The notes below the pieces were generated by a model. The model had not been told where the DNA came from, did not search any database, and worked only from the letters and a program-made list of their open reading frames with translations. DNA of 64,000 nt from Escherichia coli (lineage in GTDB: Bacteria > Pseudomonadota > Gammaproteobacteria > Enterobacterales > Enterobacteriaceae): the NCBI RefSeq assembly GCF_965641715.1, contig NZ_OZ282453.1; one strand, written 5' to 3'. Numbering within the stretch: position 1 is the first letter of the stretch; every line of letters starts with the position of its first letter. Position numbers and translations under genes: made by a program. This document shows positions 39,999-64,000 of the stretch, piece by piece.

Positions 39999-42671
39999 TT
40001 AACCCGGCACCTCGCTGTTGAAGACATAGAGCCTGCGGGGATTCATCTCTGGCGGGCGAATGGTTGTCTGGAGTTTGCCATCAGTGGAGGGCAGCAGGTA
40101 TCCACGATCTGCGCACAGACGCGCCACCTTGCGCGGGTCAAATCCCCTGCAGATTTCTTTCCAGCCGGACGGCATGACATAAAACGTAGTGACAGCTTCC
40201 GTGCCCTGCGCGGTACTGCCTTTCTCCACCCTGCGCCAGCCCACCATATTGGCGGGGCGGTTGCGCTCGTCATACCAGTCTGCAAAGCGGCTGTACTGAT
40301 TCGCGGTAAAGAAACTGCGAACCTGCTCCAGTGCGGCGATATCTTCCTGATTGGCGGTGTGCCCGCGCTCTTTCAGCCATGCGTTCAGGCAGACGCGGGT
40401 TGCCCGCAATGCTTCACCCTCAGGCCAGCCGGTGATACCCTGACGGGTTGCCAGTTCACCTGCCATCGCCACCAGTGCAAAGCGGTTCACAGCCCGGCCC
40501 ACCTGATTGCCTGCATCTTTCGGAGTCAGGGCGGCAGCATATTCCTTCATCAGCGATTTTGCCTGTGCCGTTAGTCCGTTAAGATCAGCGGTCAGTGCTT
40601 TCAGCCACTCCCGGAACGGCGAACCGTAGTAGCAGGACGTGGCCCATTCAAGATGCTCTGCCAGAGCCTTGCCGCTGTCGAAGCCGTGCAGCTCCTCAAA
40701 AACGCCAAACTTCCCGGAATCGCTGGGGATCTGGATCATCCTGACTTCCATCCCGGCAAAAGTACGCTCACCGGCCTTTGCCGCATGTTCGGTCAGAGAT
40801 AACTCGCCAGTTGAAAAGAACAACAGGCGCCACTGCTTACGGGTACGCAGTTCACCGTCCGTACCGGCACGACCCTTGCCCTGACCGTTTGCCAGCATGT
40901 AGGCGATATTGCCTGCCTCGCGTCCGTCAACTTCCCGGATCTCATCAAGCATCATGGCGGCATCGTTGCGGCGGCTGGCACATCCCTCCAGCGCGTTGCC
41001 GGTGGCCCGCCATGTCTGCCAGTAGTCAGGCCCGCCGCAGACGGAGGTTGCCGCTTTCATGGTGGTGGTCTTACCGTCTGTCGATTCCCCTTTGAGGTGG
41101 TAGCCGCCGCCGTCCATACCAACCAGCCGTAACAGTGGTGCAGCAAAGGCCAGGCTGACAGCAAATGCCACGCGGGAGTTGCCGGTACAGTAGCGGGATA
41201 CGTTCTCCCGCCATTCCTCTGTTGTGCCCGACACGCGGAAATCACGCCCCTGCACGGAAGTGGTCTGGAGAATGACACCCTCTGCACCTTCACCGCTGAC
41301 CTCATCCTGCAGGACGTAAACCTGACCATGCCAGCCAGTACGGCTGACGCAGGTCACGCGACGTTCCGGTTTACACAGTGAGATATATTCCATCAGGCGT
41401 GCGCGTGCCTCACCGGTGGTGCTGATATAAGACAGCCCGTTAACAAGCAGTACCCGGCGCAGTTCCTCACCACTGCCGCTCAGCATTTCCATCGGCATCG
41501 CCCAGCGGCGACGCTCACCCCACGTATCTTCCCATTCCAGCAGTCGTCCGAAGTTACCGCCATCGGCATCGCAGGTGATTGCCGTCACGCGCAGCGGGCT
41601 GCATATTTTGACGTTCTGGATCTCCGTCTCACCGTTGCGCTGTACCTGCTTTTCATACCAGAGATATTCCTGGGTAAGACGGAACCCGTGCGGCAGTTGC
41701 GTGCGGCCTTCCCCGCACAGTACCAGACCGTTGCGAAAGGCTTCACGGGCACGGGTAATACCGTGCTCCCGATGAAAGTCATTCCAGTCAGCCTTAATCT
41801 CTCCTGGTGGCAGCGTCATCCAGCCGCCAACAGCTTTTGCCGCCCGTTCAGCAAAGGCTCTGCCGGGATTCTCCCCCCCGTCCTGAAAATCGTTATCACC
41901 GGCGATGATAATTTTTACCTCAGGCCAGCGTGCCCGCAGCGACTGCGCCACATTGGGCAGGTTGCCCGCAGATATGGCAGCCACTACGCATCCGGCAGTG
42001 AGCTGGCTTACCGTCAGCGCCGTAGCGTAACCTTCGGTAATCACCACCTGTACCGGTGGTTCAGACGGTAACGGGCTGAGCGACACAAACGCGCCTTTCA
42101 TCGTGCTGCCGGGCAGTATGCTTTTTTCACCCGTCGGGGCGATAAGCTGTGCACCGGTCACGGCTCCGGTGTTGGTCGTGAGTGGTAACAGCAGGGAACC
42201 AGCAGGAAAATCCTTACCGCTGATATGCTGCACGCTTCCGGTCAGAGAGGCCGGGTATCCGGCGAACCCTTTTCCTGCCAGATAGGCACTTTCTCCCGTG
42301 TGGCTCTCTTTCATCAGCGTCGCCACGGTAAGGCTCATGTCGCGTTTAGGGGCTTTTTGTCTGGCAGGCTTAACAGGCAGTTCCTGCACATCCGGCACAT
42401 TAAGCACCTGCGCCACCTGCTGCGCAGCCTTTCTGACGTTGTAGCCGGTTACGAGCTTAACCAGATCCAGACCGTCACCATTGCCACACTGGCTGCAGAT
42501 CCACGTCCCGCGCCCGTCAAGGTCATCGAGGCGAAAACGATCCTTGCCCCCACATTTCGGGCAGGGACCGTGCCTGCCGTTTTCAGGTACATCAATACGC
42601 AGCATATGCAGAATAACGGGCCATTTCCCCCGCGCGGCGGCTGAAATCTGCGTAACCGTCTGTATTGTCAT
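39999..42671 (-). CDS. P4 alpha-like primase/helicase
   Basis: 890 aa; N-terminal zinc-binding CPKCGG...CSQCG; Walker A GESTDGKTT. Confidence 0.8.
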   Translation of the reverse strand: MTIQTVTQISAAARGKWPVILHMLRIDVPENGRHGPCPKCGGKDRFRLDDLDGRGTWICSQCGNGDGLDLVKLVTGYNVRKAAQQVAQVLNVPDVQELPVKPARQKAPKRDMSLTVATLMKESHTGESAYLAGKGFAGYPASLTGSVQHISGKDFPAGSLLLPLTTNTGAVTGAQLIAPTGEKSILPGSTMKGAFVSLSPLPSEPPVQVVITEGYATALTVSQLTAGCVVAAISAGNLPNVAQSLRARWPEVKIIIAGDNDFQDGGENPGRAFAERAAKAVGGWMTLPPGEIKADWNDFHREHGITRAREAFRNGLVLCGEGRTQLPHGFRLTQEYLWYEKQVQRNGETEIQNVKICSPLRVTAITCDADGGNFGRLLEWEDTWGERRRWAMPMEMLSGSGEELRRVLLVNGLSYISTTGEARARLMEYISLCKPERRVTCVSRTGWHGQVYVLQDEVSGEGAEGVILQTTSVQGRDFRVSGTTEEWRENVSRYCTGNSRVAFAVSLAFAAPLLRLVGMDGGGYHLKGESTDGKTTTMKAATSVCGGPDYWQTWRATGNALEGCASRRNDAAMMLDEIREVDGREAGNIAYMLANGQGKGRAGTDGELRTRKQWRLLFFSTGELSLTEHAAKAGERTFAGMEVRMIQIPSDSGKFGVFEELHGFDSGKALAEHLEWATSCYYGSPFREWLKALTADLNGLTAQAKSLMKEYAAALTPKDAGNQVGRAVNRFALVAMAGELATRQGITGWPEGEALRATRVCLNAWLKERGHTANQEDIAALEQVRSFFTANQYSRFADWYDERNRPANMVGWRRVEKGSTAQGTEAVTTFYVMPSGWKEICRGFDPRKVARLCADRGYLLPSTDGKLQTTIRPPEMNPRRLYVFNSEVPG

Positions 42672-43051
42672 ACTTCCCCCTGATACAACGTCACACCAGT
42701 ACTGCAGAAGTCATCAAAGGTCGCCGGAAGCGTGCGGTACATCTCCGCCATTACTTCACAGCCGCGCGCGGTCAGTACCGGCGGCGCGGTCAGCAGTGAC
42801 GGCTCCAGCATGTCAGTCAGCAGTGCCAGCGCGGCAGCGGCGCCCTGTGCTTCGCCGTACTCGTTAATCAGTGCGCACTCGATATGCAGCGCAATGGCCA
42901 TTTCAATACGCTCCACCGTCAGGCTGTGCGGACCATACTGATCACTGCCAGTTTCGTTCAGCATTTTCTGCCGCCATGCTGAAGCAATAGCCCGCCGGTA
43001 AAGCGCGGTTGTCATTTCTGCCGGGAAAATGGAAACCTGCGGCTGGTTCAT
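42668..43051 (-). CDS. Hypothetical protein, satellite left operon
   Basis: 127-aa ORF; 4-bp overlap with the alpha start and the upstream ORF. Confidence 0.4.
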   Translation of the reverse strand: MNQPQVSIFPAEMTTALYRRAIASAWRQKMLNETGSDQYGPHSLTVERIEMAIALHIECALINEYGEAQGAAAALALLTDMLEPSLLTAPPVLTARGCEVMAEMYRTLPATFDDFCSTGVTLYQGEV

Positions 43052-43332
43052 CTGGCACCTCCTTCAATCAGTGCACAGCTGTGCGCAATATCCGTCAAAT
43101 CTGCCCGCAGGTACTCCATCAGCGCGGCGACACCATGCGCACAGCCAGCGTCCAGTGCTCCGGCCTGAGACGGGTATTCAGAAAAGAGAAGCTGGAGCAT
43201 GTCGCAGGCATTTCTTGCGCGGGTCAGCTTTCCGAAACTGTCCTCTGACAACCCATAGGCAAAAGCACCGGTATTGTGTTTTTCAGGCAAAGTGTGGCCC
43301 TGAGCACCGTTGTGCCCGTTTGAAATATTCAT
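43048..43332 (-). CDS. Hypothetical protein, satellite left operon (epsilon-position)
   Basis: 94-aa ORF in an overlapping gene train. Confidence 0.4.
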   Translation of the reverse strand: MNISNGHNGAQGHTLPEKHNTGAFAYGLSEDSFGKLTRARNACDMLQLLFSEYPSQAGALDAGCAHGVAALMEYLRADLTDIAHSCALIEGGAR

Positions 43333-43363
43333 CGTGGATTACTCCGTTTTCAGCGGTATTTTG

Positions 43364-43723
43364 TCAGAGAAACTTTGAATAGTGACCGTCGTCAGGCTCA
43401 GCAGAACGCCGTATGCTACGCTCCCGCCAGCGGATAAATAGCACAGACGGATGCAGTGTCAGCGGGCCGGAACCACTACCGCCTGCAGGAGCTGGTGCAG
43501 GCTTAAAGAGCGGTACATCAAACAGGCGCGTATACCGCTGTTCAAACCATGCCAGAGGGCAGGAAGAAAGCTGGTTGTCGCTGTCATGACGTATCAGCAC
43601 TTCACAGCTGAATTCAGGATTAACCAGCGCCACAGAGGGCGAGGCTTCAATTAATCGGATAATCGTGACCGTCCAGCCACGTTCATGCTGCCAGCGTTCG
43701 CCGGGGTGCGGATAATTACGCAT
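43364..43723 (-). CDS. Hypothetical protein, satellite left operon
   Basis: 119 aa from the internal Met MRNYPHPGERW; ATG overlaps the stop of the upstream small ORF. Confidence 0.4.
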   Translation of the reverse strand: MRNYPHPGERWQHERGWTVTIIRLIEASPSVALVNPEFSCEVLIRHDSDNQLSSCPLAWFEQRYTRLFDVPLFKPAPAPAGGSGSGPLTLHPSVLFIRWRERSIRRSAEPDDGHYSKFL

Positions 43724-43892
43724 GTTCACCTCCGCAGGGAATGCGCCCGGCAAAGCTCAGTACATAATCCGGGGCAAGTCTTCGCCGCGCTGACCGCTCG
43801 TTATCTGCGGTGATCCTTAACATCACAGGACGGGCATTGCGTTGACTGCGGTTGATCGCCGCAAATAACCAGGTACACTTCTGTTTAGCCAT
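43716..43892 (-). CDS. Small basic protein (58 aa), first gene of the left operon
   Basis: ATG with AAGAGG Shine-Dalgarno 8 nt upstream; MAKQKCTWLFAAINRSQRNARPVMLRI...; not in the ORF track. Confidence 0.3.
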   Translation of the reverse strand: MAKQKCTWLFAAINRSQRNARPVMLRITADNERSARRRLAPDYVLSFAGRIPCGGEHA

Positions 43893-43983
43893 CTTCGTTA
43901 CCTCTTATAACGGTTGGTTAAATGCCCGATTTGTGTTCCCGCACAATCGGGCATTGCTTTTACAAGCGAACTATACTTACAAT

Positions 43984-44023
43984 GGTAATTACCATGTAGT
44001 CATCATATTCCAGGGTAATTACC
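43984..44023. promoter_or_regulatory. Two copies of the perfect 10-bp palindrome GGTAATTACC (43984-43993 and 44014-44023); candidate operators
   Basis: Read directly; between the divergent left operon and the RHH ORF. Confidence 0.4.
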
Positions 44024-44197
44024 ATGTCAACACCACAAGAGAAACGTTCCCCACCATTCCAAATGCGTCTTACCGACGATTTTAGGTTGCAACTCGAAAA
44101 AGAAATGCGCAAAGATGGAGATAGCGCGTTGGCAACTTGGATTAAAAGAATTTTACGTAAAGAACTACAATCACGCGGGATTGACCCTAAAGGTTAA
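44024..44197 (+). CDS. Ribbon-helix-helix (Arc/MetJ-like) candidate repressor, 57 aa
   Basis: MSTPQEKRSPPFQMRLTDDFRLQLEKEMRKDGDSALATWIKRILRKELQSRGIDPKG; beta-strand plus two helices pattern; not in the ORF track. Confidence 0.45.
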   Translation: MSTPQEKRSPPFQMRLTDDFRLQLEKEMRKDGDSALATWIKRILRKELQSRGIDPKG

Positions 44198-44229
44198 TCA
44201 GTTAAATATTACTAACTATCAATTAAGGC

Positions 44230-44520
44230 TTAGGGAGTAGGTGATAATCTATTCCCTTTATTAATTGCTCTTGCCTTATTTCTCATCCCCTCAAACTGTT
44301 GACCTGAGTTTTCTTCAAACCCATCTCGCCACTTATAATAATCAGCAGCGCGCCATCGGGACATCCGACCTATTTTTATAGGTTTTGGAAAGCGATTCAG
44401 AGAAATCAATCGATAAATCCATTTGTCACTTAATAAACAATCGGAAGTAATAAACTTCATATCGATCAGAGAATCCATTGAAGGTCGTTGCAAAGTAGTA
44501 TTATCATGTTTAGATAACAT
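44230..44520 (-). CDS. alpA: AlpA-family prophage regulatory protein
   Basis: Motif IYRLISLNRFPKPIKIGRMSRWRAADYYKW typical of AlpA; true start may be an internal Met. Confidence 0.65.
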   Translation of the reverse strand: MLSKHDNTTLQRPSMDSLIDMKFITSDCLLSDKWIYRLISLNRFPKPIKIGRMSRWRAADYYKWRDGFEENSGQQFEGMRNKARAINKGNRLSPTP

Positions 44521-44645
44521 TCATCATTCTCCGTTTATCTAAGTCTATTGGCTTCAACACGGAAAATTAAAACATAGGTTATAAATGAGAAAAATGTGAC
44601 TAATGAAAAAAATCCAAAATCATTAGTCACAATAATTGTTAACAT

Positions 44646-45470
44646 TTAGTTAAACTTAATGTTTTTCATGCAACTACGTAGCAAGCTAACAACAGTATCA
44701 TAGCTCAAAGGTGGTTCTCCGGTCTTAGGCCAGAACTCACTGGCATGTTGAAAAAGATAATCAGCTATCGCTGCTGGACTCTCTCTTCTTAGCCTCATAT
44801 CACGATGATAGAGCGAAATAATAGCCATGAGTATTTCAGTTCGAGGAACAGCATGTTTTTGTTTTTGCGCCTCAGATTGTGATTTATATTTATTGGCGTT
44901 TTTTATCCGTTTTTGTTCGCATAAGACTATATCAATGAATTTTTGAATCTGTACCTTTGTAATCCACAAAACCTCAAAAAGATAATAATTTTCTTTTTCA
45001 TCATAATTTACATAAAGAATTACCTTACAATTTATATTAGGCGTACCCGCCAGTAGAAAATGAATAGGCCAGGAATCCGGTTGCCCCTCATGCTTAACTA
45101 ACAGATCTTTATATTCATAATCAACAGCCCATAAACCGGATATAAAGCATCGAATAAAACCATTTTTATCAATTAAATTATTTTCATCAGGGATTCTTAT
45201 AGAGCTTAAGTCTGACAACATAATATTGCCATTTCTATCTCGTGGTAAATATTTCAGATTAGATAAGAACTCATCCAGTTGACCATCAATCTTCAAACCA
45301 CATGAAACATCATACTCATCATCATGGAATTCCATGCATAGCTCTACATCTCGTTCTCTGGCAAACCAGAGTATATCCTTTTCACTACAACCAATTTTTT
45401 CTGAAGCTTCATCCAACTGGTAGTAATCTCTGAGCAGAGAATCAGTATTATTAATTTTTAAAATATTCAT
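44646..45470 (-). CDS. Hypothetical protein (274 aa), AT-rich island cargo
   Basis: Long ORF; start overlaps the integrase stop by 4 bp; no motif recognised. Confidence 0.5.
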   Translation of the reverse strand: MNILKINNTDSLLRDYYQLDEASEKIGCSEKDILWFARERDVELCMEFHDDEYDVSCGLKIDGQLDEFLSNLKYLPRDRNGNIMLSDLSSIRIPDENNLIDKNGFIRCFISGLWAVDYEYKDLLVKHEGQPDSWPIHFLLAGTPNINCKVILYVNYDEKENYYLFEVLWITKVQIQKFIDIVLCEQKRIKNANKYKSQSEAQKQKHAVPRTEILMAIISLYHRDMRLRRESPAAIADYLFQHASEFWPKTGEPPLSYDTVVSLLRSCMKNIKFN

Positions 45471-46657
45471 TTATGAGTACCAATTAGCTCAGATAAATAA
45501 TTAGCATACCATTGCATCATTTCTCTTCTCCCTTCGAGATATTGGGCATGGTTATAAATTCCACGAATAGAGTTTTTGTCCGAATGAGCAAGCTGGGTTT
45601 CAATCCAAGCGCTGTTAAATCCTTTCTCATGTAGAATTGTACTCATCGTATGCCTGAAACCATGTCCCGTAACACGCCCTGCATATCCAATACGTTTAAA
45701 CACCTGATTGATGCTTGCTTCACTCATAAATTTGCTAGGATCGTTGCGTCCAGGGAACATCAGCGGGTAGTTCCCAGTTAGTTCTTTCAAACTTTTGAGA
45801 TGGGATAATGCTTGTTTTGGTAACGGGACAATATGGCTCCTACGCATTTTCATACGTTCTTTTGGGATCTCCCACACCGCATTATCAAAATCCACCTCTC
45901 GCCACTCACCTGCTCGTAGTTCTCCAGTTCGTAGACCTGTCAGGATAAGTAAATGCGCCCCCAACAATACAATTGGACTTCCTGAATAAGAATTAAGGGC
46001 ATTAAAGAACTCCGGTAGTTCGTTGGCTTTGAGGAATGGATAGTGGACTGCTTCATGTCCTTGCATCGCACTGGCAAGATCCGGTGCCGGATTGTAGATT
46101 GCCCTACCCGTTACGATGGCATAGCGAAAAACTTCACCGCATCGCTGACGGACTTTCTTCGCTTTCTCCATAGCGCCTCGAGCTTCTATCAACCTCAGAA
46201 CTTCAAGCAGTTCAAGGGGCTGAATATCAGCTATAGGTCTGTGCCCAATATGCGGAAAAATGTCTTTCTCAAATGCCTCAATGATGTCGGAAGCATAGCC
46301 CTCAGACCATTTGGATGATTTCATTTTGTGCCACTCTAACGCCACTTCTCTGAATGGGTTAAGTGTCTCAATCGCTGCGTTTAAAGCCTGCTTTTTGGCT
46401 TTTTTGACTTCGCCGGGATCTTCACCTGCTGCGAGTAGTTTCTTTGCGTCTTCTCGTTTTTGTCTGGCATCAGCAAGTGTGACTGTTGGATAAACACCAA
46501 AGGACAATCGTTTCTCTTTACCAGCAAAACGGTATTTCATACGCCAGTAACGCGAGCCATTAGGTTCGACCTGAAGGTATAGGCCACCTCCATCAAACAG
46601 CTTATAGCTCTTCTCTTTTCCTTTCGCAGCTTCAACCTTGCGGGCATTCAGCATCAT
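45467..46657 (-). CDS. int: Tyrosine integrase (P4-type), tRNA-adjacent
   Basis: N-terminal SYKLFDGGGLYLQVEPNGSRYWRMKYRF; C-terminal catalytic HxxR...Y (HGFRHT ... GIYNHAQYLEGR); ORF extends to 46726. Confidence 0.85.
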   Translation of the reverse strand: MMLNARKVEAAKGKEKSYKLFDGGGLYLQVEPNGSRYWRMKYRFAGKEKRLSFGVYPTVTLADARQKREDAKKLLAAGEDPGEVKKAKKQALNAAIETLNPFREVALEWHKMKSSKWSEGYASDIIEAFEKDIFPHIGHRPIADIQPLELLEVLRLIEARGAMEKAKKVRQRCGEVFRYAIVTGRAIYNPAPDLASAMQGHEAVHYPFLKANELPEFFNALNSYSGSPIVLLGAHLLILTGLRTGELRAGEWREVDFDNAVWEIPKERMKMRRSHIVPLPKQALSHLKSLKELTGNYPLMFPGRNDPSKFMSEASINQVFKRIGYAGRVTGHGFRHTMSTILHEKGFNSAWIETQLAHSDKNSIRGIYNHAQYLEGRREMMQWYANYLSELIGTHK

Positions 46658-54789: not shown

Positions 54790-55336
54790 TTATCCTTCGA
54801 TAAATGCCATCCCTGTAAACGTTCGTCGCGGGTTGCCACGTTCAATCTGGTGATGGAACATTCGCCGCTGCGATTTCAGCGCCGCGCTATTTTCCTGTTG
54901 CTGTTGCTCCAGCTTCCAGGCAATCAGCAATCGCGCCAGCCGTTTGTTAGCATGCTGGCTGCGTTCTGACTGAACCTTCACGCTAATCCCGGTTGCCAGA
55001 TGCGTGGCGCGTACCGCCGAGTCGGTTTTATTGACATGTTGACCGCCCGGCCCCGACGAACGCAGCGTGTCAGGATAACGCCCGGCTTCGGTTTCCAGCA
55101 CCGTTACCGCGACGTCTTGTCGGGTAAAAACGACCAACAGAGAAGAACGCTGCGCCAATCGGGTAGCCGCGTCCGGGGTGTAAATCTGGCATCCCCACTA
55201 CGCGCTGCATGTTGGGTAAATTTGCCGTGGTGTGTAATTGTTGGATCGCTAAACTCTCGATCCACAGGTCATCAGATGCGATGGTAAATACCGCATCGGA
55301 TAAGGGACGAATATATTTGCCCATGTACCATTCCAT
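54790..55336 (-). pseudogene. prfH: Remnant of an rtcB-like / prfH module: RtcB N-terminal fragment fused out of frame to the PrfH C-terminal part
   Basis: 55070-55336 encodes an RtcB-like N-terminus ([18 protein letters not shown]); 54790-55158 encodes the release-factor GGQ region ([10 protein letters not shown]); overlapping, frame-discordant ORFs. Confidence 0.55.
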
Positions 55337-55465
55337 TTATACTCGTCATACTTCAAGTTGCATGTACTGCGACTGCGTTCGTTCACCCCAGTCACTTACT
55401 TATGTAAGCTCCTGGGGATTCACTCGCTTGTCGCCTTCCTGCAACTCGAATTATTTAGAGTATAT
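55337..55465. repeat. ERIC (enterobacterial repetitive intergenic consensus) element
   Basis: Contains atgtaagctcctggggattcac and aagtaagtgactggggtgaacg (reverse strand), matching the ERIC core as I recall it; terminal inverted repeats. Confidence 0.7.
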
Positions 55466-55641
55466 AAATATAAAAATCAGGAAATGGCAGACGAATCCAG
55501 GGCAAGAAAAAAAGAATTAATCCTGGAAAGGTCTGCAAAGAGTCATTGATAAAGGATTTGTCATGATTTACCTCCTTGCAGTTTGTGGAATAAGAAAACG
55601 CGCACATACCAGGCGGGCGTTATTTTCATTGCAAGCTGGAT

Positions 55642-56094
55642 TTAATGTTGCGGTTTATATCGCATATAAAAATTAGTAAACCAAGCTCCACGGCATTCAA
55701 CGCGCTGCTGCTTAACTGTCTGAAAACCATAACGTTCAAAAAAGGGTTTTGCGGTTATGCTGGCGTCCACCGTAAGTTCGGATTCAGACTTAATCAAAGG
55801 TTTTAACAAAGCGCTGGCAACCCCACGGCGGGTGTATTCAGGGTCAACAAATAACATATCGATATAATGTTCAATGCGGGAAATAAAACCAACCGGTTGT
55901 GCATTAATGACTGCAACCCGCACTTGTGATTTCGCGAGTTTCTCCTTCCAGCGAGATTCGTCAATCTGCGCCCAGGCGGCAATTTGTTGTGGTGAATAAT
56001 GCTGACTGGCGGTCATCATAACCGCTCTAATGAAAATAGCGCATAGTTGCTGAAAATCGCCAGGCTGATAGTTTCTTATTTGTATGTTATTCAT
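55642..56094 (-). CDS. yafP: GNAT-family acetyltransferase
   Basis: 150 aa from MNNIQIRNYQPGDFQQL; the ORF track includes a 20-codon upstream extension. Confidence 0.85.
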   Translation of the reverse strand: MNNIQIRNYQPGDFQQLCAIFIRAVMMTASQHYSPQQIAAWAQIDESRWKEKLAKSQVRVAVINAQPVGFISRIEHYIDMLFVDPEYTRRGVASALLKPLIKSESELTVDASITAKPFFERYGFQTVKQQRVECRGAWFTNFYMRYKPQH

Positions 56095-56123
56095 AATGTA
56101 AGTTTTGTTTTGAATACCCGCAT
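56091..56123 (-). pseudogene. yafO: yafO toxin remnant: 10 codons (MRVFKTKLTL, stop) between yafN and yafP
   Basis: ATG 2 bp after the yafN stop encodes MRVFKTKL (as the K-12 YafO N-terminus, by recollection) then terminates; the ~130-codon body is absent. Confidence 0.5.
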
Positions 56124-56125
56124 CC

Positions 56126-56419
56126 TTATTCCTTAAAGTCATTGAAATCATCATCCGTCATATCATTAAGATATTGTTCAGCGCGGCGTGTAATTTCCTC
56201 TAATCTTGCAGCACTTGGACGGAAGCGCGCCTTTATGGGCTTTTTCTCCTCTTGTTCAGCAAGCATGTCCATTAACGCTTCGAATGCGCTGGCACTTAAG
56301 AGATATCCTGCGGGGCGATTATTAGAAAGAACCGCAACCGGTTGATCAATAAAGTATTTAGCTGGGTTTTTACGTAACTCAGTAATATTGACCGATTTTT
56401 CAGCGAGAATTCGATGCAT
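56126..56419 (-). CDS. yafN: Type II antitoxin YafN
   Basis: 97 aa MHRILAEKSVNITELRKNPAKYF... Confidence 0.85.
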   Translation of the reverse strand: MHRILAEKSVNITELRKNPAKYFIDQPVAVLSNNRPAGYLLSASAFEALMDMLAEQEEKKPIKARFRPSAARLEEITRRAEQYLNDMTDDDFNDFKE

Positions 56420-56470
56420 ACAGTGATCCCCTCATAATAATGCACACTAGAATAGACATAATAGTATACA

Positions 56471-57526
56471 TCATAATCCCAGCACCAGTTGTCTTTCCAT
56501 TTGAGGGTCAAGCAACGTCACATGCAGCCCCACCAGTCGCACACCGCGCCCACCGCGGCGTTCATCCCAGGTTTTACGCGCGGTGGCGATTAGATCAGCT
56601 TTATTCAGCCGCGGCCAGACGTGCTCCTGGGTGGTTTGCTGAAAATCGTCGAACTTTAATTTCACCCCCTGGCGAGCAATCAGTAAATCAGGTTTTACCT
56701 TTGCCAGACGGCGTTCAAGTTCCGGATACAGCCGCTCGATAATCGCTTCACATTCAGACCAGTGATGAATATCTTCCGCCATCGTGCGTTCCACGCCGAC
56801 GGATTTTCGTAACCGTTCGCTGTTAACATCGCGCTCGTCAATCCCCTGACTACGCTCCCACAAAATGCGGCCAAATTTGCCAAAGCGTTTAAGCAGAATC
56901 ACCAGATCACACTTTTGTACATCACCGCAGGTCCGCAGCCCCATCGCTTCCAGTTTTGCCGCCGAGACTTTGCCGACGCCGGGGATTTTTGCCAGCGGTA
57001 AGGTTTGCAGAAATGCCGGAACTTCTGCCGGAGTAATCACAAACTGGCCGTTGGGTTTATTCATGTCGGAGGCGATTTTGGCGAGAAACTTTACTGGTGC
57101 CACGCCCGCAGACGCCGTCAGTTGCAGCTCGCTGAAAATCGTCTGGCGGATTTCCTGGGCGATGAGGGTCGCAGAACCGTGGCAATGGACGCTGTCGGTG
57201 ACATCGAGATAAGCCTCATCCAGTGACAACGGCTCAATGCGCGAGGTGTAGCGCGAGAAGATTTCACGGATATGATTTGAGGCTTCTTTGTAGGCGTCAA
57301 AGCGCCCCGGAAGCAAGGTGAGATGTGGGCATAATTTGAGCGCCATCCCTGTCGGCATAGCGCTGCGTACGCCAAATTTACGCGCGGGATAATTGGCGGT
57401 GCTGATCACCCCCCGACGTTCGCGGCTGCCGCCAATAGCAATAGGGATATCGCGCAGGGCGGGATTGTCGCGCATCTCCACTGCGGCGAAAAAGCAGTCC
57501 ATATCCACATGAATGATTTTACGCAT
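56471..57526 (-). CDS. dinB: DNA polymerase IV (Y-family)
   Basis: 351 aa [22 protein letters not shown]... Confidence 0.95.
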
Positions 57527-57596
57527 TACTCACCTCTCAACACTGGTAAAGTATACAGTGATTTCAGGGTTTGAGAAATGCGTAAAGATTCAGCAT

Positions 57597-58340
57597 TTAG
57601 CGCGTTCGCTGCGAAAGCACCTGCTGCTTATCCAGCTTTTGCACCAGCGGCTGCACCACTTTATCCCCATGCTGACCAAAGTATTGATACAGCGTATCGG
57701 ACGCACTTTTGGTCAGCACCATAATCTCAATACGCCGATTGCCCGCGCTTTGCGGATTTTTGGCATCCAGCAGCATCTGGTCAGCCATTGCGCTTACCTG
57801 CATCACTTTATCTTCCGGCATTCCGGCCTCTTCCAGCACCCGACGAGCCGAAAGCGCGCGATCGCCCGAAAGGTTCCAGTTGTTGTAGATATTGTTTTTG
57901 TAGGCCATCGCATCGGTATGCCCGGTAATAATAATTTTGTTATCGAGCGAGTCGAACACTGGCGCGAGCTCCACCAGCAGCGTTTTAAAGAACGGCATAA
58001 TCTGCGCGCTGCCGCGTTCAAACATATTGCGGTTCTGGTCGTCTTTAATCAGCACGCGTAATCCCTGCGGGACAATCTCCATCTCCAGATTCGCTTCCAT
58101 ATGCGCATCACGGGCAATGGTGTTGATACTGGTTGCCAACTCGCCAAGCTCGGTGGCGGATTTCTTCTTCAGCAGCGCCGTTTTCTCATTCACATCACGC
58201 GCTTTTTTCTCCGTCTCTTCCGGCACCGCCACGGTGGCAGGTTTTGGCGGATGAGACGGGCTGATTTTATTTAACGGCGACAGCCCACCACCGTTAAAAA
58301 TCGACTGCCCGTGCAGCGCGGCGATAATGCTTTCACGCTC
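57597..58340 (-). pseudogene. mbhA: MotB-like (LafU/MbhA) fragment lacking N-terminal TM region; Flag-2 remnant
   Basis: C-terminal OmpA-like domain (IIITGHTDAMAY...NRRIEIMV); the N-terminal 50 codons of the ORF are antisense readthrough of the flhA-like sequence. Confidence 0.6.
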
Positions 58341-60066
58341 GGATTTACTGACGCTGTTGACAATCAACTTTATCGTCGTCACCAAAGGGGCCGAGCGTAT
58401 TTCCGAGGTTTCTGCCCGCTTTACCCTGGACGCGATGCCCGGCAAACAGATGGCGATTGACGCTGACCTTAACGCCGGGTTGATCAACCAGGCGCAGGCG
58501 CAAACCCGGCGTAAAGATGTCGCCAGCGAGGCCGATTTCTACGGCGCGATGGACGGGGCGTCGAAGTTTGTGCGCGGGGATGCCATCGCCGGGATGATGA
58601 TTCTGGCGATCAACCTGATCGGTGGTGTCTGTATCGGGATCTTCAAATACAACCTGAGCGCTGACGCTGCCTTCCAGCAATATGTGCTGATGACCATCGG
58701 CGACGGGCTGGTGGCGCAGATCCCTTCCCTGCTGCTCTCCACCGCGGCGGCGATTATCGTCACCCGCGTCAGCGACAACGGCGATATCGCCCATGACGTA
58801 CGCCACCAACTGCTGGCAAGCCCGTCGGTGCTCTACACCGCTACCGGAATTATGTTTGTGCTGGCGGTAGTGCCGGGGATGCCCCACCTGCCGTTTTTGC
58901 TGTTCAGCGCCCTGCTTGGCTTTACCGGCTGGCGGATGAGCAAACGCCCGCAGGCGGCGGAGGCGGAAGAGAAAAGCCTCGAAACGCTGACCCGTACCAT
59001 CACCGAAACCAGCGAGCAACAGGTCAGTTGGGAGACTATTCCGCTGATCGAGCCTATCAGTTTAAGCCTCGGCTACAAGCTGGTGGCGCTGGTGGACAAA
59101 GCCCAGGGCAACCCGCTCACCCAGCGTATTCGCGGCGTGCGACAGGTGATATCCGACGGCAACGGCGTGCTGCTGCCGGAGATCCGCATTCGGGAAAACT
59201 TCCGCCTTAAGCCCAGTCAGTACGCTATTTTCATCAACGGCATTAAGGCCGATGAAGCAGATATTCCGGCGGATAAACTGATGGCCCTGCCCTCCAGCGA
59301 AACCTACGGCGAGATAGACGGCGTGCTGGGGAACGACCCGGCGTACGGGATGCCGGTGACCTGGATCCAGCCCGCGCAGAAGGCGAAGGCACTAAATATG
59401 GGGTATCAGGTGATCGACAGCGCCAGCGTGATTGCCACCCATGTGAATAAGATTGTACGCAGCTATATTCCTGATTTGTTTAACTATGACGACATCACAC
59501 AGTTGCATAACCGTTTGTCGTCGATGGCACCGCGCCTGGCGGAGGATTTAAGCGCGGCGCTGAATTACAGCCAGTTGCTGAAAGTGTACCGCACACTACT
59601 GACCGAAGGCGTTTCCCTGCGCGACATCGTCACCATCGCCACCGTGCTGGTCGCCAGTAGCGCGGTGACCAAAGATCACATTCTGCTGGCGGCCGATGTG
59701 CGCCTGGCGCTGCGGCGCAGCATTACTCATCCGTTCGTTCGCAAACAGGAGCTGACGGTGTATACGCTGAATAATGAGCTGGAAAATCTGCTCACCAACG
59801 TAGTGAATCAGGCGCAACAGGGCGGCAAAGTGATGCTCGACAGCGTGCCGGTCGACCCGAATATGCTCAACCAGTTCCAGAGCACGATGCCGCAGGTGAA
59901 GGAGCAGATGAAAGCGGCGGGGAAAGATCCGGTGCTGCTGGTGCCGCCGCAGTTGCGTCCTTTGCTGGCGCGCTATGCAAGGTTGTTTGCGCCGGGGCTG
60001 CATGTGCTGTCGTATAACGAAGTGCCGGACGAGCTGGAGTTGAAGATTATGGGGGCCTTGAGTTGA
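58327..60066 (+). pseudogene. fhiA: FlhA-like (LfhA/FhiA) export-gate protein lacking ~130 N-terminal residues; Flag-2 remnant
   Basis: Similarity begins at TINFIVVTKGAERISEVSARFTLDAMPGKQM (FlhA ~residue 130); no N-terminal TM1-3; junction with mbhA near 58330-58350. Confidence 0.6.
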
Positions 60067-60096
60067 TTGAGGAGGCTATATAAGGGCCAGGACCGT

Positions 60097-60184
60097 CCCC
60101 TCGCCCCTTTGGGGAGAGGGTTAGGGTGAGGGGAAAGTGCGCGCTGAGCCCCTCACCCCGGCCCTCTCCCCAAAGGGGCGAGGG
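60097..60184. repeat. Imperfect palindromic element (~34-bp arms) between convergent fhiA and yafL
   Basis: cccctcgcccctttggggagagggttagggtgagggg versus cccctcaccccggccctctccccaaaggggcgaggg; read directly. Confidence 0.4.
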
Positions 60185-60227
60185 AGAAAATCGTGTACGA
60201 CTTTAGCTTTTTCGCGGTATTGCCGTC

Positions 60228-60977
60228 CTACAAAATCGTCTCTTCCGTCAAAATCCGCCGCGCGCCTAAAAAATGATCCTGCCAGAAAGGTTCAGCTAAC
60301 CGACTTACCCGAATGGTTTCCCCGGTGCGCGGTGACTCAATAAACTGACCGTCGCCCAGATACACCCCCATATGGTCGGCAATCTCGCGGCTGTGGATAT
60401 GGAAAAACAGCAAATCTCCCCGGCGCAGGTCGTTATTCGCCACAATCGTTGCCCGATGGTAGTGATACATCTCATTAGCCGTACGCGGGAGCTTCGCCTC
60501 GAGGATCTTGTTGTAGGCATAAAAAACCAACCCGCTACAGTCAAAGCCTTTATCAGGCCGCGTGCCGCCCCAGACGTAAGGCTTGCCAAGCTGCTGCTCC
60601 AGGCGGTGAATCGCCACTTCGGTGATGTTATGCAGATGGTCGCTGCTTAAAAAGTGGTTATTTTCCGCCAGCGCCTGCCAGCGTCTGTCACTCGCCTTGA
60701 GCGGCGCAGGAAACCATTCTGGATGCTGTTTTATCTGTTCGCGGTTGTGCTGGCGCAGCGCCCTTCTGCTTTCGGCATTGCCTTCCACAATATAGCTGGC
60801 CTGCTTTTTCAGATGGGTTTGGTACTGTTTTAATAAACGCGCACGGTTTTGCATCCGCTGGCGGGCGGCGTAGCTGAAAGAGATATGTGATGTGGTGGCG
60901 CAGGCAAATGAAGAAAACGGCAAGCAAAGCAACAGTAATCCCGACAACACAAAAGAGGGAATCGACGGCAAAGACAT
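60228..60977 (-). CDS. yafL: NlpC/P60-family lipoprotein peptidase
   Basis: 249 aa from MSLPSIPSF...; catalytic Cys context GFDCSGLVFYAY. Confidence 0.8.
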   Translation of the reverse strand: MSLPSIPSFVLSGLLLLCLPFSSFACATTSHISFSYAARQRMQNRARLLKQYQTHLKKQASYIVEGNAESRRALRQHNREQIKQHPEWFPAPLKASDRRWQALAENNHFLSSDHLHNITEVAIHRLEQQLGKPYVWGGTRPDKGFDCSGLVFYAYNKILEAKLPRTANEMYHYHRATIVANNDLRRGDLLFFHIHSREIADHMGVYLGDGQFIESPRTGETIRVSRLAEPFWQDHFLGARRILTEETIL

Positions 60978-61186
60978 TCTCAATAATGGCTGGTCATGCA
61001 TTGATGTTGCAGTGTATCCTGGCCCGTACCTGAACAAACTTAATAAACCATTATTATAAAATTAATAAATATATTTCAGTTTATTATGTAAAAACATCCG
61101 TTTATTAAATTACTCATGGATTGTCGCTGTTGCTCATTTGAGCTACAATTCAAGCTGAATAAATATACAGCACAGGAGATACCCCA

Positions 61187-61447
61187 ATGGCTGCTAACGC
61201 GTTTGTTCGCGCCCGAATCGATGAAGATCTGAAGAATCAGGCGGCGGACGTACTGGCCGGGATGGGGCTGACCATCTCTGACCTGGTTCGCATAACCCTC
61301 ACAAAGGTCGCGCGTGAAAAGGCATTGCCGTTTGATTTACGCGAGCCTAATCAATTAACCATTCAATCAATCAAAAACAGCGAAGCTGGCGTTGATGTTC
61401 ATAAGGCCAAAGACGCCGATGATTTATTTGATAAATTAGGAATTTAA
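61187..61447 (+). CDS. dinJ: Type II antitoxin DinJ
   Basis: 86 aa MAANAFVRARIDEDLKNQAADVLAGMGLTISD... Confidence 0.9.
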   Translation: MAANAFVRARIDEDLKNQAADVLAGMGLTISDLVRITLTKVAREKALPFDLREPNQLTIQSIKNSEAGVDVHKAKDADDLFDKLGI

Positions 61448-61449
61448 AT

Positions 61450-61727
61450 ATGATTCAAAGGGATATTGAATACTCGGACAATTTTCAAAGGATGTAAAAC
61501 TTGCACAAAAGCGTCATAAGGATATGAATAAATTGAAATATCTTATGACGCTTCTTATCAATAATACTTTACCGCTTCCAGCTGTTTATAAAGACCACCC
61601 GCTGCAAGGTTCATGGAAAGGTTATCGCGATGCTCATGTCGAACCGGACTGGCTCCTGATTTACAAACTTACCGATAAACTTTTACGATTTGAGAGAACT
61701 GGAACTCACGCGGCGCTCTTTGGGTAA
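61450..61727 (+). pseudogene. yafQ: yafQ toxin gene with an apparent -1 frameshift (split into a 15-codon N-terminal ORF and a C-terminal ORF from 61476)
   Basis: ATG at 61450 gives MIQRDIEYSDNFQRM then stop at 61495; the conserved remainder (GQFSKDVKLAQKRHKDMNKLKYL...) is in the +2 frame; consistent with loss of one G in the tcggga run near 61476. Confidence 0.55.
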
Positions 61728-61882
61728 AGCCCGCTTCCGATGAAATTTGTAAACCCTGCGCCGACAGGCTTGCGTAAAACTCTTTTGGTGATAATGTGAG
61801 CCTTCCAAATCCAGACTATTCCGATTTGGGATCCATTTTGCCGTCCTGGCGTGTGTAACCGTTTTATCAAGGAATAAGCAGT

Positions 61883-62623
61883 ATGCGTAAAATCGCATTA
61901 ATTCTTGCGATGTTGTTGATCCCGTGCGTTTCGTTTGCCGGTTTGCTGGGCAGCAGTAGCTCGACCACGCCAGTGAGCAAAGAGTATAAGCAGCAGTTGA
62001 TGGGATCCCCTGTCTACATCCAGATCTTCAAGGAAGAACGTACGCTCGATCTCTACGTCAAAATGGGCGAGCAATATCAACTGCTCGACAGCTATAAAAT
62101 CTGTAAATATTCCGGCGGCTTAGGGCCAAAACAGCGTCAGGGCGATTTCAAAAGCCCGGAAGGGTTTTATAGCGTCCAGCGTAATCAGTTAAAACCAGAC
62201 AGCCGTTACTACAAAGCGATTAATATTGGTTTCCCCAATGCCTATGACCGTGCGCATGGTTATGAAGGGAAATACCTGATGATCCACGGCGATTGTGTTT
62301 CCATCGGCTGCTACGCGATGACCAATCAGGGCATTGACGAGATTTTCCAGTTCGTTACTGGCGCACTGGTATTTGGTCAGCCGAGCGTGCAAGTGAGCAT
62401 TTACCCGTTCCGCATGACCGACGCTAATATGAAGCGCCACAAATATTCCAACTTTAAGGACTTCTGGGAGCAACTGAAGCCGGGTTACGACTACTTTGAG
62501 CAAACCCGTAAGCCACCGACCGTTTCTGTGGTCAATGGTCGTTACGTGGTCAGCAAGCCGTTAAGCCACGAAGTTGTGCAACCACAGCTGGCATCAAACT
62601 ACACGCTCCCCGAGGCAAAATAA
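61883..62623 (+). CDS. yafK: L,D-transpeptidase-like periplasmic protein
   Basis: 246 aa with signal peptide; YkuD-like HGDCVSIGC catalytic region. Confidence 0.85.
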
Positions 62624-63361
62624 GCGCCATTCGCCTGGCATAATTTTTTGCCAGGTTTCATTGCCCGTCAGCGGCTGTGTCGCAATCACCGTGACCACAT
62701 CATTCGGTGTGGTCTGCGAGCTGAAGTCGATTTCCACATCCTGATCCAGCAACGTTGCCACGCCAAACGGCGCGCGGCGGGTGATCCAGTGTAAATTAGT
62801 CGAGCAATACGCCATTACATAGCGCCCGTCCGAAAGCAGCATGTTGAAAACGCCCTTCGCCCGCAGTTCATCCGCCAGTGAGGCGATATATTTAAACACT
62901 GCCGCCATGTTGCCCGGCGTGCGCGGGTAACGCTGCGTTAATTTATGCAGCAGCCAGCAAAAGGCTTTTTCGCTGTCGGTTTCACCGACCGGGCGGAAGT
63001 TGCCGGTTTCCAGTGATTTGTAGCCCGTCAGTTGCCCGTTATGGGCATAAGTCCAGTTACGCCCCCATAACTCGCGGGTAAACGGGTGAGTATTTTCCAG
63101 CGCCACCTCGCCCCGATTAGCCTGGCGAATATGAGCCACCACCGAACAAGATTTTATCGGGTAGTCCTGGACCAGTTTGGCGATAGGTGAGTTAAAGCTG
63201 GGTTGCGGATCTTTAAATGTGCGACAGCCTTTACCTTCGTAAAAGGTAATGCCCCAGCCATCTTTATGTGGCCCGGTTCCACCACCACGCTGCACCAGAC
63301 CGGTGAAACTAAAGCAGATATCGGTAGGGACGTTGGCGCTCATCCCGAGCAATTCGCACAT
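62594..63361 (-). CDS. yafJ: Class II glutamine amidotransferase-like protein
   Basis: Start at [10 protein letters not shown] (N-terminal Cys nucleophile), 255 aa. Confidence 0.85.
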
Positions 63362-63427
63362 GGGTAACCTCCACAACAGCGGGAGCGCATGGCCCCCGGC
63401 GAAGATTGATTTAAGAATTTTCAGGTC

Positions 63428-63556
63428 GGATGCGGCGTGAACGCATTATTCGGCCTACGGTTCGCGTACAGATTTGTAGGCATGATAAGACGCGTCAGCG
63501 TCGCATCAGGCATCAGCGCACAAATGCCGGATGCGGCGTAAACGTCTTATCCGGCC
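63428..63556. repeat. REP/BIME cluster (three REP units in alternating orientation)
   Basis: gccggatgcggcgtaaacgtcttatccggcctacg and related units read directly, between yafJ and gmhA. Confidence 0.6.
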
Positions 63557-63566
63557 TACGCCAGAC

Positions 63567-64000
63567 TTACTTAACCATCTCTTTTTCAATCAACTGGATC
63601 AGGATATGGATCACTTTAATGTGAATCTCCTGAATGCGGTCGGCATAACCAAAGTGCGGTACGCGAATTTCGATATCCGCCGTGCCAGCCATTTTGCCGC
63701 CGTCTTTACCGGTCAGGGTGATCACTTTCATTCCCTTCTCACGCGCCGCTGCGATCGCTTTGATCACGTTTGCAGAGTTACCGGAGGTGGAGATCCCCAG
63801 CAGTACATCGCCTTCGCGACCTACCGCTTCAACGTAACGGGAGAAAATATCATTGAAACCGAAATCGTTACCGACGCATGAAATATGACTAACGTCAGAA
63901 ATAGCAATCGCCGGGTAGCCCGGACGGTTTTCACGGTAGCGACCGGTCAACTCTTCGGCAAAGTGCATAGCGTCGCAATGGGAACCGCCGTTGCCGCAGG
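63567..64000 (-). CDS. gmhA: Phosphoheptose isomerase, partial (5' end beyond the window)
   Basis: C-terminal ~144 aa of GmhA (SIS domain, ...[29 protein letters not shown]...); gene continues past 64000. Confidence 0.85.

Follow-up and report, generated by a model that had tools for sequence, protein, structure and literature searches.

The large imperfect palindrome at 60097-60184 of the window (the whole 64,000-nt stretch of Escherichia coli DNA analysed here, contig NZ_OZ282453.1) is, judged by its sequence, a pair of inverted BoxC units in which a type A and a type B unit stand head-to-head. These units are also known as PIT or TMECO elements, and the palindrome belongs to this known kind of repeat and not to a new one. 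It is the location in the lfhA'-yafL spacer, not the kind of repeat, that sets this copy apart. The conspicuous 88-bp palindrome can now be annotated as a BoxC (PIT/TMECO) doublet instead of being left as an unknown feature. The first-pass annotation had suggested either a repeat family different from REP or a terminator. The first part stands, with the correction that the family was already described, and the second is not supported; no T-run follows the hairpin. We consider it quite likely that the doublet is a structure-forming intergenic repeat that is prone to slippage and deletion and has no gene-specific function, possibly acting as a passive hairpin at RNA 3' ends.

Architecture and family of the palindrome

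The repeat finder places two inverted arms at 60098-60133 and 60149-60184. Each has 36 nt, their complementarity is 92%, and 15 nt lie between them. The palindrome is real, and its earlier description with arms of ~34 bp was essentially right. The predicted RNA hairpin is strong on both strands. For 60085-60200, the predicted RNA energies are -89.6 kcal/mol (+ strand; z = -10.25) and -85.1 kcal/mol (- strand; z = -9.77), and 0 of 200 shuffles fold as well. As DNA, the doublet folds at -45.8 and -44.5 kcal/mol for the two strands (z ~ -9). The 64-kb window contains the core motif GGGAGAGGGNNNGGGTGAGGG twice, once per strand and both times inside the palindrome, against 0.04 matches expected by chance. 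The doublet at 60085-60197 is the only BoxC site in the window.

Each arm follows the architecture of a BoxC unit. A C-rich block is separated by a loop from a complementary G-rich block, and a 3-nt loop then leads to another G-rich block. Arm A (60098-60133, + strand) is a unit of the BoxC/TMECO type 'A mm' and reads CCCTCGCCCC-TTT-GGGGAGAGGG-TTA-GGGTGAGGGG, with its G-rich blocks on the + strand. Arm B (60149-60184, - strand) is of type 'B mm' and reads CCCTCGCCCC-TTT-GGGGAGAGGG-CCG-GGGTGAGGGG on the - strand. Between them lies the spacer or loop AAAGTGCGCGCTGAG (60134-60148), which is 15 nt long and of the short-spacer type. Both arms show the three-block pattern of the family, CCCTC[G/T]CCC-loop-GGGAGAGGG-TTA or CCG-GGGTGAGGG within 34-37 nt. 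They also combine as BoxC doublets do, with a type A (TTA) unit and a type B (CCG) unit on opposite strands, here A on the + strand and B on the - strand. The sole difference between the arms is in loop 2, TTA versus CCG, and the long hairpin is therefore nearer to perfect than in most K-12 doublets.

Holder et al. (2015) list 23 TMECO triplex motifs of K-12 MG1655 in their Table 1 (PMC4666352). Compared with this table, arm A is base-for-base identical to K-12 TMECO nos. 7, 11 and 15, and arm B to no. 3. In arm A, blocks 1 and 2 pair at 9 of 10 positions with the G.A mismatch typical of the family, which recurs in the 'mm' unit types. When the blocks were parsed by script, the stem between blocks 1 and 2 was paired at 9-10 of 10 positions in all 25 units, and one stem pair covaries among them, being C-G in 17 units and T-A in 5. 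The script was used for parsing; a MAFFT alignment of the 18 distinct units misplaced the gaps at the 5' end rather than in loop 1.

The family has been described several times. According to PMC4666352, the TMECO motif is the repeat that was called BoxC in the 1990s and that Maher and colleagues named PIT (potential intrastrand triplex). Its G-rich cores were described by Kaplan et al. (2016) as the G-quadruplex motifs HPG1, with a TTA loop, and HPG2, with a CC loop (PMC5100583). BoxC, PIT, TMECO and HPG1/HPG2 thus all denote a single family. The K-12 GenBank record gives BoxC as a 56-bp repeat (51-59 bp) with 32-33 copies, and RefSeq annotation leaves BoxC repeats unlabelled. Five K-12 sites carry two inverted units, and each of them pairs one type A unit with one type B unit (PMC4666352). 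An Rfam scan at a permissive E-value returned no family at its gathering threshold. The only matches were to hairpin models of miRNA precursors, at no more than 43 bits against thresholds of 58-168. We regard these matches to eukaryotic models as spurious; they reflect a generic long hairpin, and all of them are far below threshold.

The element extends beyond its arms. We aligned the window with four head-to-head K-12 doublets, those at hrpB-mrcB, fepB-entC, ygfF-gcvP and alx-sstT, and similarity spans the spacer and ~12 nt of flank on each side, giving an element of ~60085-60197. The left flank (60085-60097) is GGCCAGGACCGTC and matches G.GCTCGGaC.GTC beside the unrelated K-12 doublets; it forms part of the classical BoxC unit of ~56 bp. 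The right flank (60185-60197) is AGAAAATCGTGTA, with GAGAAAAc.GTGc at the same place in K-12. Conserved sequence outside the triplex core, as expected of BoxC, is therefore found at unrelated K-12 loci. The spacer AAAGTGCGCGCTGAG aligns with the spacer GAACGTGCGCGCTGATG of the hrpB-mrcB doublet, and the other three K-12 doublets have spacers of 26-27 nt. In sum of features, the window's copy and the K-12 elements share their units, the A and B head-to-head form, the flanks, the spacer type, the intergenic position and the multi-copy state. They differ in location, since K-12 has rayT with BIMEs and no BoxC copy at lfhA-yafL.

BoxC is interspersed, multi-copy and intergenic, and the window's copy conforms in lying within the 161-nt lfhA'-yafL spacer. 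A 103-nt query finds matches in 5408 of 5426 complete E. coli genomes, with a median of 22 matching places in each. The places are chromosomal in 99.9% of cases (57 of 110,651 are plasmid-borne). Matches in the plasmid collection are few, and many of these records are megaplasmids or mislabelled chromosomes. The phage collection (50,697 records) gave only 6 weak partial matches.

These data leave practically no weight for the reading of the palindrome as a chance or locus-specific feature, or as a diverged REP/BIME unit. The one link to REP is that the rayT alleles hold REP units in the same spacer. Against this, two motif matches stand where 0.04 are expected, the fold has a z of about -10, homologous copies number in the thousands, and the sequence of the doublet is unrelated to that of REP units, whether those at 63426-63560 or those that K-12 has in the lfhA-yafL spacer. 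The earlier remark that the palindrome is unlike the repeats near 63426-63560 was correct; the latter are canonical REP/BIME and share no sequence similarity with it. The doublet also lacks the REP consensus (GCCGGATGCGGCG... with 5' GTAG), and GTAG occurs only outside the element, at the stop codon of yafL. We rejected a chance palindrome and a REP variant on the motif count, the copy number, the identity to published units and the alignment with K-12 doublets.

Two further observations concern the distribution of the units. BoxC-like matches of 77-90% identity occur on replicons of Sinorhizobium, Rhizobium, Azospirillum and Aeromonas. This suggests, at the level of sequence, that related G/C-rich repeats of the triplex type exist well outside the enterobacteria, and Holder et al. 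report triplex-type repeats in other phyla (PMC4666352). A single type B BoxC unit is present in the yafJ-lpcA spacer of E. coli CFIAFB20140388 (6232-6267 of the extracted stretch), ~2.6 kb from the doublet; the 64-kb window ends short of this spacer.

The lfhA-yafL spacer and its alleles

The doublet lies between convergent genes, as described earlier. On the + strand, lfhA' (also fhiA; 58327-60066) is a truncated remnant of a Flag-2 gene of the FlhA family. Its ORF has 579 aa, and its stop codon lies 18 nt before the element. In E. coli N3, GF43 and K-12 DH1, the homologous stretch bears the annotation of an incomplete FlhA pseudogene. On the - strand, yafL (60228-60977) encodes a peptidase of the C40 / NlpC-P60 family. 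We checked its translation; the stop codon lies 30 nt from the element, and homologues in all E. coli relatives examined carry the yafL annotation. The spacer in the window covers 60067-60227 (161 nt) and contains no rayT.

This spacer differs greatly among strains. In K-12 and O157 it contains rayT (yafM, the REP-associated tyrosine transposase) between BIMEs, and other strains have hicAB or only BIME arrays. Counting alleles by queries each covered at 80% or more, rayT with REP/BIME is found in ~3567 of the 5426 complete E. coli genomes, hicAB in ~1370 and the BoxC doublet in 21. The remaining genomes have BIME arrays or other sequence. The alleles swap the entire spacer between the two stop codons. 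The lfhA stop codon, the left edge, is common to all of them, and at the right edge all alleles reconverge at CCTACAAAATCG, which overlaps the yafL stop codon. The sequence GTAGGACGG (60223-60231, - strand) also overlaps this stop codon. In rayT-bearing strains a REP unit starts at this point, and GTAGGACGG corresponds to its first 9 nt. The lfhA-yafL spacer is therefore a multi-allele hotspot in which the BoxC doublet is a rare third allele, one shared with Pseudocitrobacter. As the spacer of the single E. coli rayT gene, this hotspot may be of interest to those who study bacterial repeats.

The 21 carriers of the doublet are mixed with respect to the Flag-2 cluster, which is intact in some (PCN033, CFIAFB20140388) and deleted in others (N3, GF43). 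Among complete E. coli genomes, none exceeds 97.7% identity to 54800-64000 at full coverage (98.2% at 98% coverage), and none exceeds 95.5% across the whole of 59600-60700. The names yafL, fhiA, lfhA, yafM and rayT are not mentioned in the supplements of Holder et al., whose survey covers 63 TM loci.

We extended the comparison by a YafL protein scan with one genome per species, which yielded 21 loci. In Citrobacter spp., only a small GC hairpin, AAGGCGGT-loop-ACCGCCTT, separates the convergent yafL and lfhA. By outgroup comparison, we infer this state to be the older one, and the hairpin is probably the ancestral shared terminator of the spacer. Pseudocitrobacter vendiensis and a Pseudocitrobacter MAG share the BoxC doublet of the window at this site. 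REP and rayT occupy the spacer in P. faecalis, E. albertii and Escherichia sp. E1V33, and one Escherichia sp. has a BIME array. The hicAB allele was also found beside a YafL that is 99% identical to that of the window, on the 3.4-kb contig SFGJ01000062.1, labelled 'MAG: Clostridiales bacterium'. This contig is almost certainly Escherichia contamination in a Clostridiales MAG.

The doublet of P. vendiensis matches that of the window at 98% identity over 108 nt, compared with 90% for yafL and 94% for the 3' end of lfhA. The doublet is thus better conserved across genera than the genes that flank it, which points to constraint or purifying selection, or to homogenisation with other copies; the sequences themselves are compatible with both. 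A repeat that was solely a destabilising passenger would fit this pattern less well.

Transcripts and structures at the doublet

The position of the doublet raises the possibility that it acts as a bidirectional terminator, as a stabiliser of mRNA 3' ends, or as both, for the convergent yafL and lfhA' transcripts. The doublet sits exactly between the two genes, its stem is extremely stable on both strands, and it occupies the position of the Citrobacter hairpin AAGGCGGT...ACCGCCTT, which resembles a shared terminator. In addition, Kaplan et al. found six HPG1 copies between convergent genes and suggested a terminator role (PMC5100583). Like intrinsic bidirectional terminators, the doublet is a G/C-rich stem-loop in a convergent spacer, with the small Citrobacter hairpin at the homologous position. 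However, it has no U-tract on either strand, and its stem of ~40 bp is far longer than terminator stems. A consensus scan of 59900-60400 found 0 sites on either strand in which a hairpin is followed by a T-run; beyond the stem, the + strand continues with AGAAAATCG and the - strand with ACGGTCCTG. A promoter consensus scan around the doublet likewise found no promoter. The functional study of PIT elements summarised in PMC4666352 is reported there to have found no promoter or terminator activity, but the negative tests described in that summary concerned single PIT units and not a long doublet hairpin. Furthermore, K-12 units lie more often upstream of ORFs than downstream, at no fixed distance (PMC4666352), and just 21 of 5426 E. 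coli genomes have the doublet at lfhA-yafL. Taken as a whole, a role as terminator or stabiliser of these transcripts seems unlikely to us, though it is favoured by position.

Its two parts fare differently. Because the scan found no stem followed by a T-run, the doublet is not a canonical intrinsic terminator, and the earlier suggestion of a terminator is not borne out. The stabiliser part, in which the hairpin is a barrier to 3' exonucleases, is mildly favoured by position because Citrobacter has its small GC hairpin in the same convergent spacer. A literature search on BoxC together with RNA 3' ends, RNases or terminators returned only the unrelated 'boxC' of rrn and nut antitermination and a 2008 survey of repeat families.

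Alternatively, the doublet could be a DNA or RNA switch that moves between duplex, hairpin and G-quadruplex or triplex forms and thereby controls neighbouring genes. Oligonucleotides identical to these units form an intrastrand triplex in vitro, as seen by CD, NMR and gels (PMC4666352), and hairpin and G-quadruplex forms of the units have also been obtained in vitro (PMC5100583). The high conservation of the units would fit such a role. However, the published surveys link the units to no gene function, distance or operon position, and one of the two neighbours here, lfhA', is a pseudogene remnant. The energetics are also unfavourable: the long Watson-Crick hairpin of the doublet is by far the most stable fold, at -45 kcal/mol as DNA against ~ -10 kcal/mol for the folds of a single arm. 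We therefore consider a regulatory switch very improbable.

The reading that we prefer, a structure-forming repeat without a gene-specific role, places its main effect at the DNA level. A single strand would fold either as the long hairpin or, arm by arm, as a hairpin, triplex or G-quadruplex. Such folding would favour replication slippage between the direct repeats inside the element, and slippage would in turn leave the lfhA-yafL locus prone to deletion and rearrangement. On this reading the element would have no gene-specific regulatory role. BoxC units are not associated with any gene class, distance or position in operons (PMC4666352). As summarised in the same paper, PIT elements block DNA polymerase in vitro and had no effect in vivo. 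At the RNA level, transcripts from yafL, or from read-through of lfhA', would form a stem of ~40 bp, which may be a passive obstacle to 3'-to-5' exonucleases or a substrate of RNase III.

Instability and possible mobility

Several alleles look like products of this slippage. In E. coli MB53, the lfhA-yafL spacer has two copies of the element (1471-1791 of the extracted stretch). The first is cut to a single arm, with the break between CCCCTC direct repeats (repeat-finder family D2). It is followed by ~110 nt that include a second fragment resembling the lfhA 3' end, and then by the second copy, a doublet with a 6-nt deletion inside arm A. The tandem, part-deleted duplicate of MB53 is also found in the Pseudocitrobacter MAG, downstream of yafL. 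At hrpB-mrcB, a deletion of the inner 64 nt between GGGAGAGGG repeats in SJ3 leaves CCCTCTCCC-TGT-GGGAGAGGG, a simple hairpin with a 9-bp stem. These derivative alleles of MB53, the Pseudocitrobacter MAG and SJ3 are concrete cases of the slippage deletions that have been proposed for the BoxC family. They agree with the published picture, in which rearrangements among E. coli strains are more frequent at TMECO loci than at control sites and palindromic occurrences tend to lose inner parts while keeping the hairpin (PMC4666352). The association of TMECO with instability is correlative, and the repeat could merely accumulate in spacers that vary for other reasons. The lfhA-yafL spacer, for its part, attracts REP/rayT and hicAB besides BoxC.

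The same spacer invites a comparison with mobile repeats. REP/BIME elements and REPINs are, like BoxC doublets, short G/C-rich intergenic palindromes that form hairpins as inverted doublets, and the resemblance is one of architecture only. BoxC has no sequence similarity to REP/REPIN, no GTAG and no known cognate transposase, and its copy number is ~10-fold lower. The link to RayT/YafM is one of place, since in most E. coli genomes rayT and REPs lie in the exact spacer that the doublet fills here. With the MITEs of enterobacteria (ERIC/IRU, RSA), the doublet has in common that it is small, non-coding and interspersed, has terminal inverted symmetry and could fold as RNA. It differs from them in sequence, and no target-site duplication was seen for BoxC at the one site compared, hrpB-mrcB. 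We know of no IS related to BoxC.

On this basis, the doublet might be a REPIN- or MITE-like non-autonomous element, moved in trans, possibly by a transposase of the Y1/RAYT type, that reached the spacer by transposition. Its architecture is that of a REPIN: inverted units paired across a short spacer form a hairpin and are bordered by conserved terminal flanks. Its copies are interspersed in E. coli genomes, and it is an alternative allele at the very site of rayT. The hrpB-mrcB locus was used for the comparison of filled and empty sites, because at lfhA-yafL the alleles replace the whole spacer. There, 3535 genomes have the full doublet, and it is absent from Nissle 1917 and from the other listed genomes with the same 102-nt-shorter match. 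Between K-12 and Nissle, one filled/empty pair with diverged junctions, no clean target-site duplication is visible. Y1 transposases are not expected to produce target-site duplications.

Other evidence speaks against transposition. The doublet has neither the GTAG tetranucleotide nor a REP consensus, no transposase is linked to the BoxC family, and to our knowledge no cognate enzyme has been described. The family is almost absent from plasmids and phages. The alleles at lfhA-yafL are whole-spacer replacements rather than clean insertions, and at hrpB-mrcB the junctions of empty and filled sites are not clean-cut either. The copy number is low, and most copies are at the same loci across strains (PMC4666352, discussion). 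Arrival of the doublet by transposition in trans therefore appears improbable.

A more elaborate version combines this idea with the history of the spacer. BoxC doublets would be REPIN-like replicators that use, or compete for, a docking site of the REP/RayT type. The spacer would have started with a plain terminator hairpin like that of Citrobacter and would have become a common landing pad, taken over in turn by BoxC, REP with rayT, and hicAB. The alleles would then have been kept or exchanged across Escherichia and Pseudocitrobacter. We regard this scenario as speculative and give it little credence, but if true it would provide the first mobility mechanism for BoxC.

Other features of the window deserve brief mention. 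The canonical BIME at 63426-63560 (GCCGGATGCGGCG...CCTAC) consists of three REP units in alternating orientation, downstream of an ORF that ends at 63376. The toxin gene yafQ (61450-61730) is frameshifted, reading MIQRDIEYS before stop codons, and the antitoxin gene dinJ (61187-61447) is intact. In MB53, the closest complete genome, yafQ is intact. Finally, an island at 40000-46000 encodes a tyrosine integrase, a TOPRIM/DUF927 primase-like protein and a regulator of the AlpA type, and is probably a P4-like integrative element. It is matched in 350 of 5426 complete E. coli genomes, with 99.9% identity among the best matches listed.
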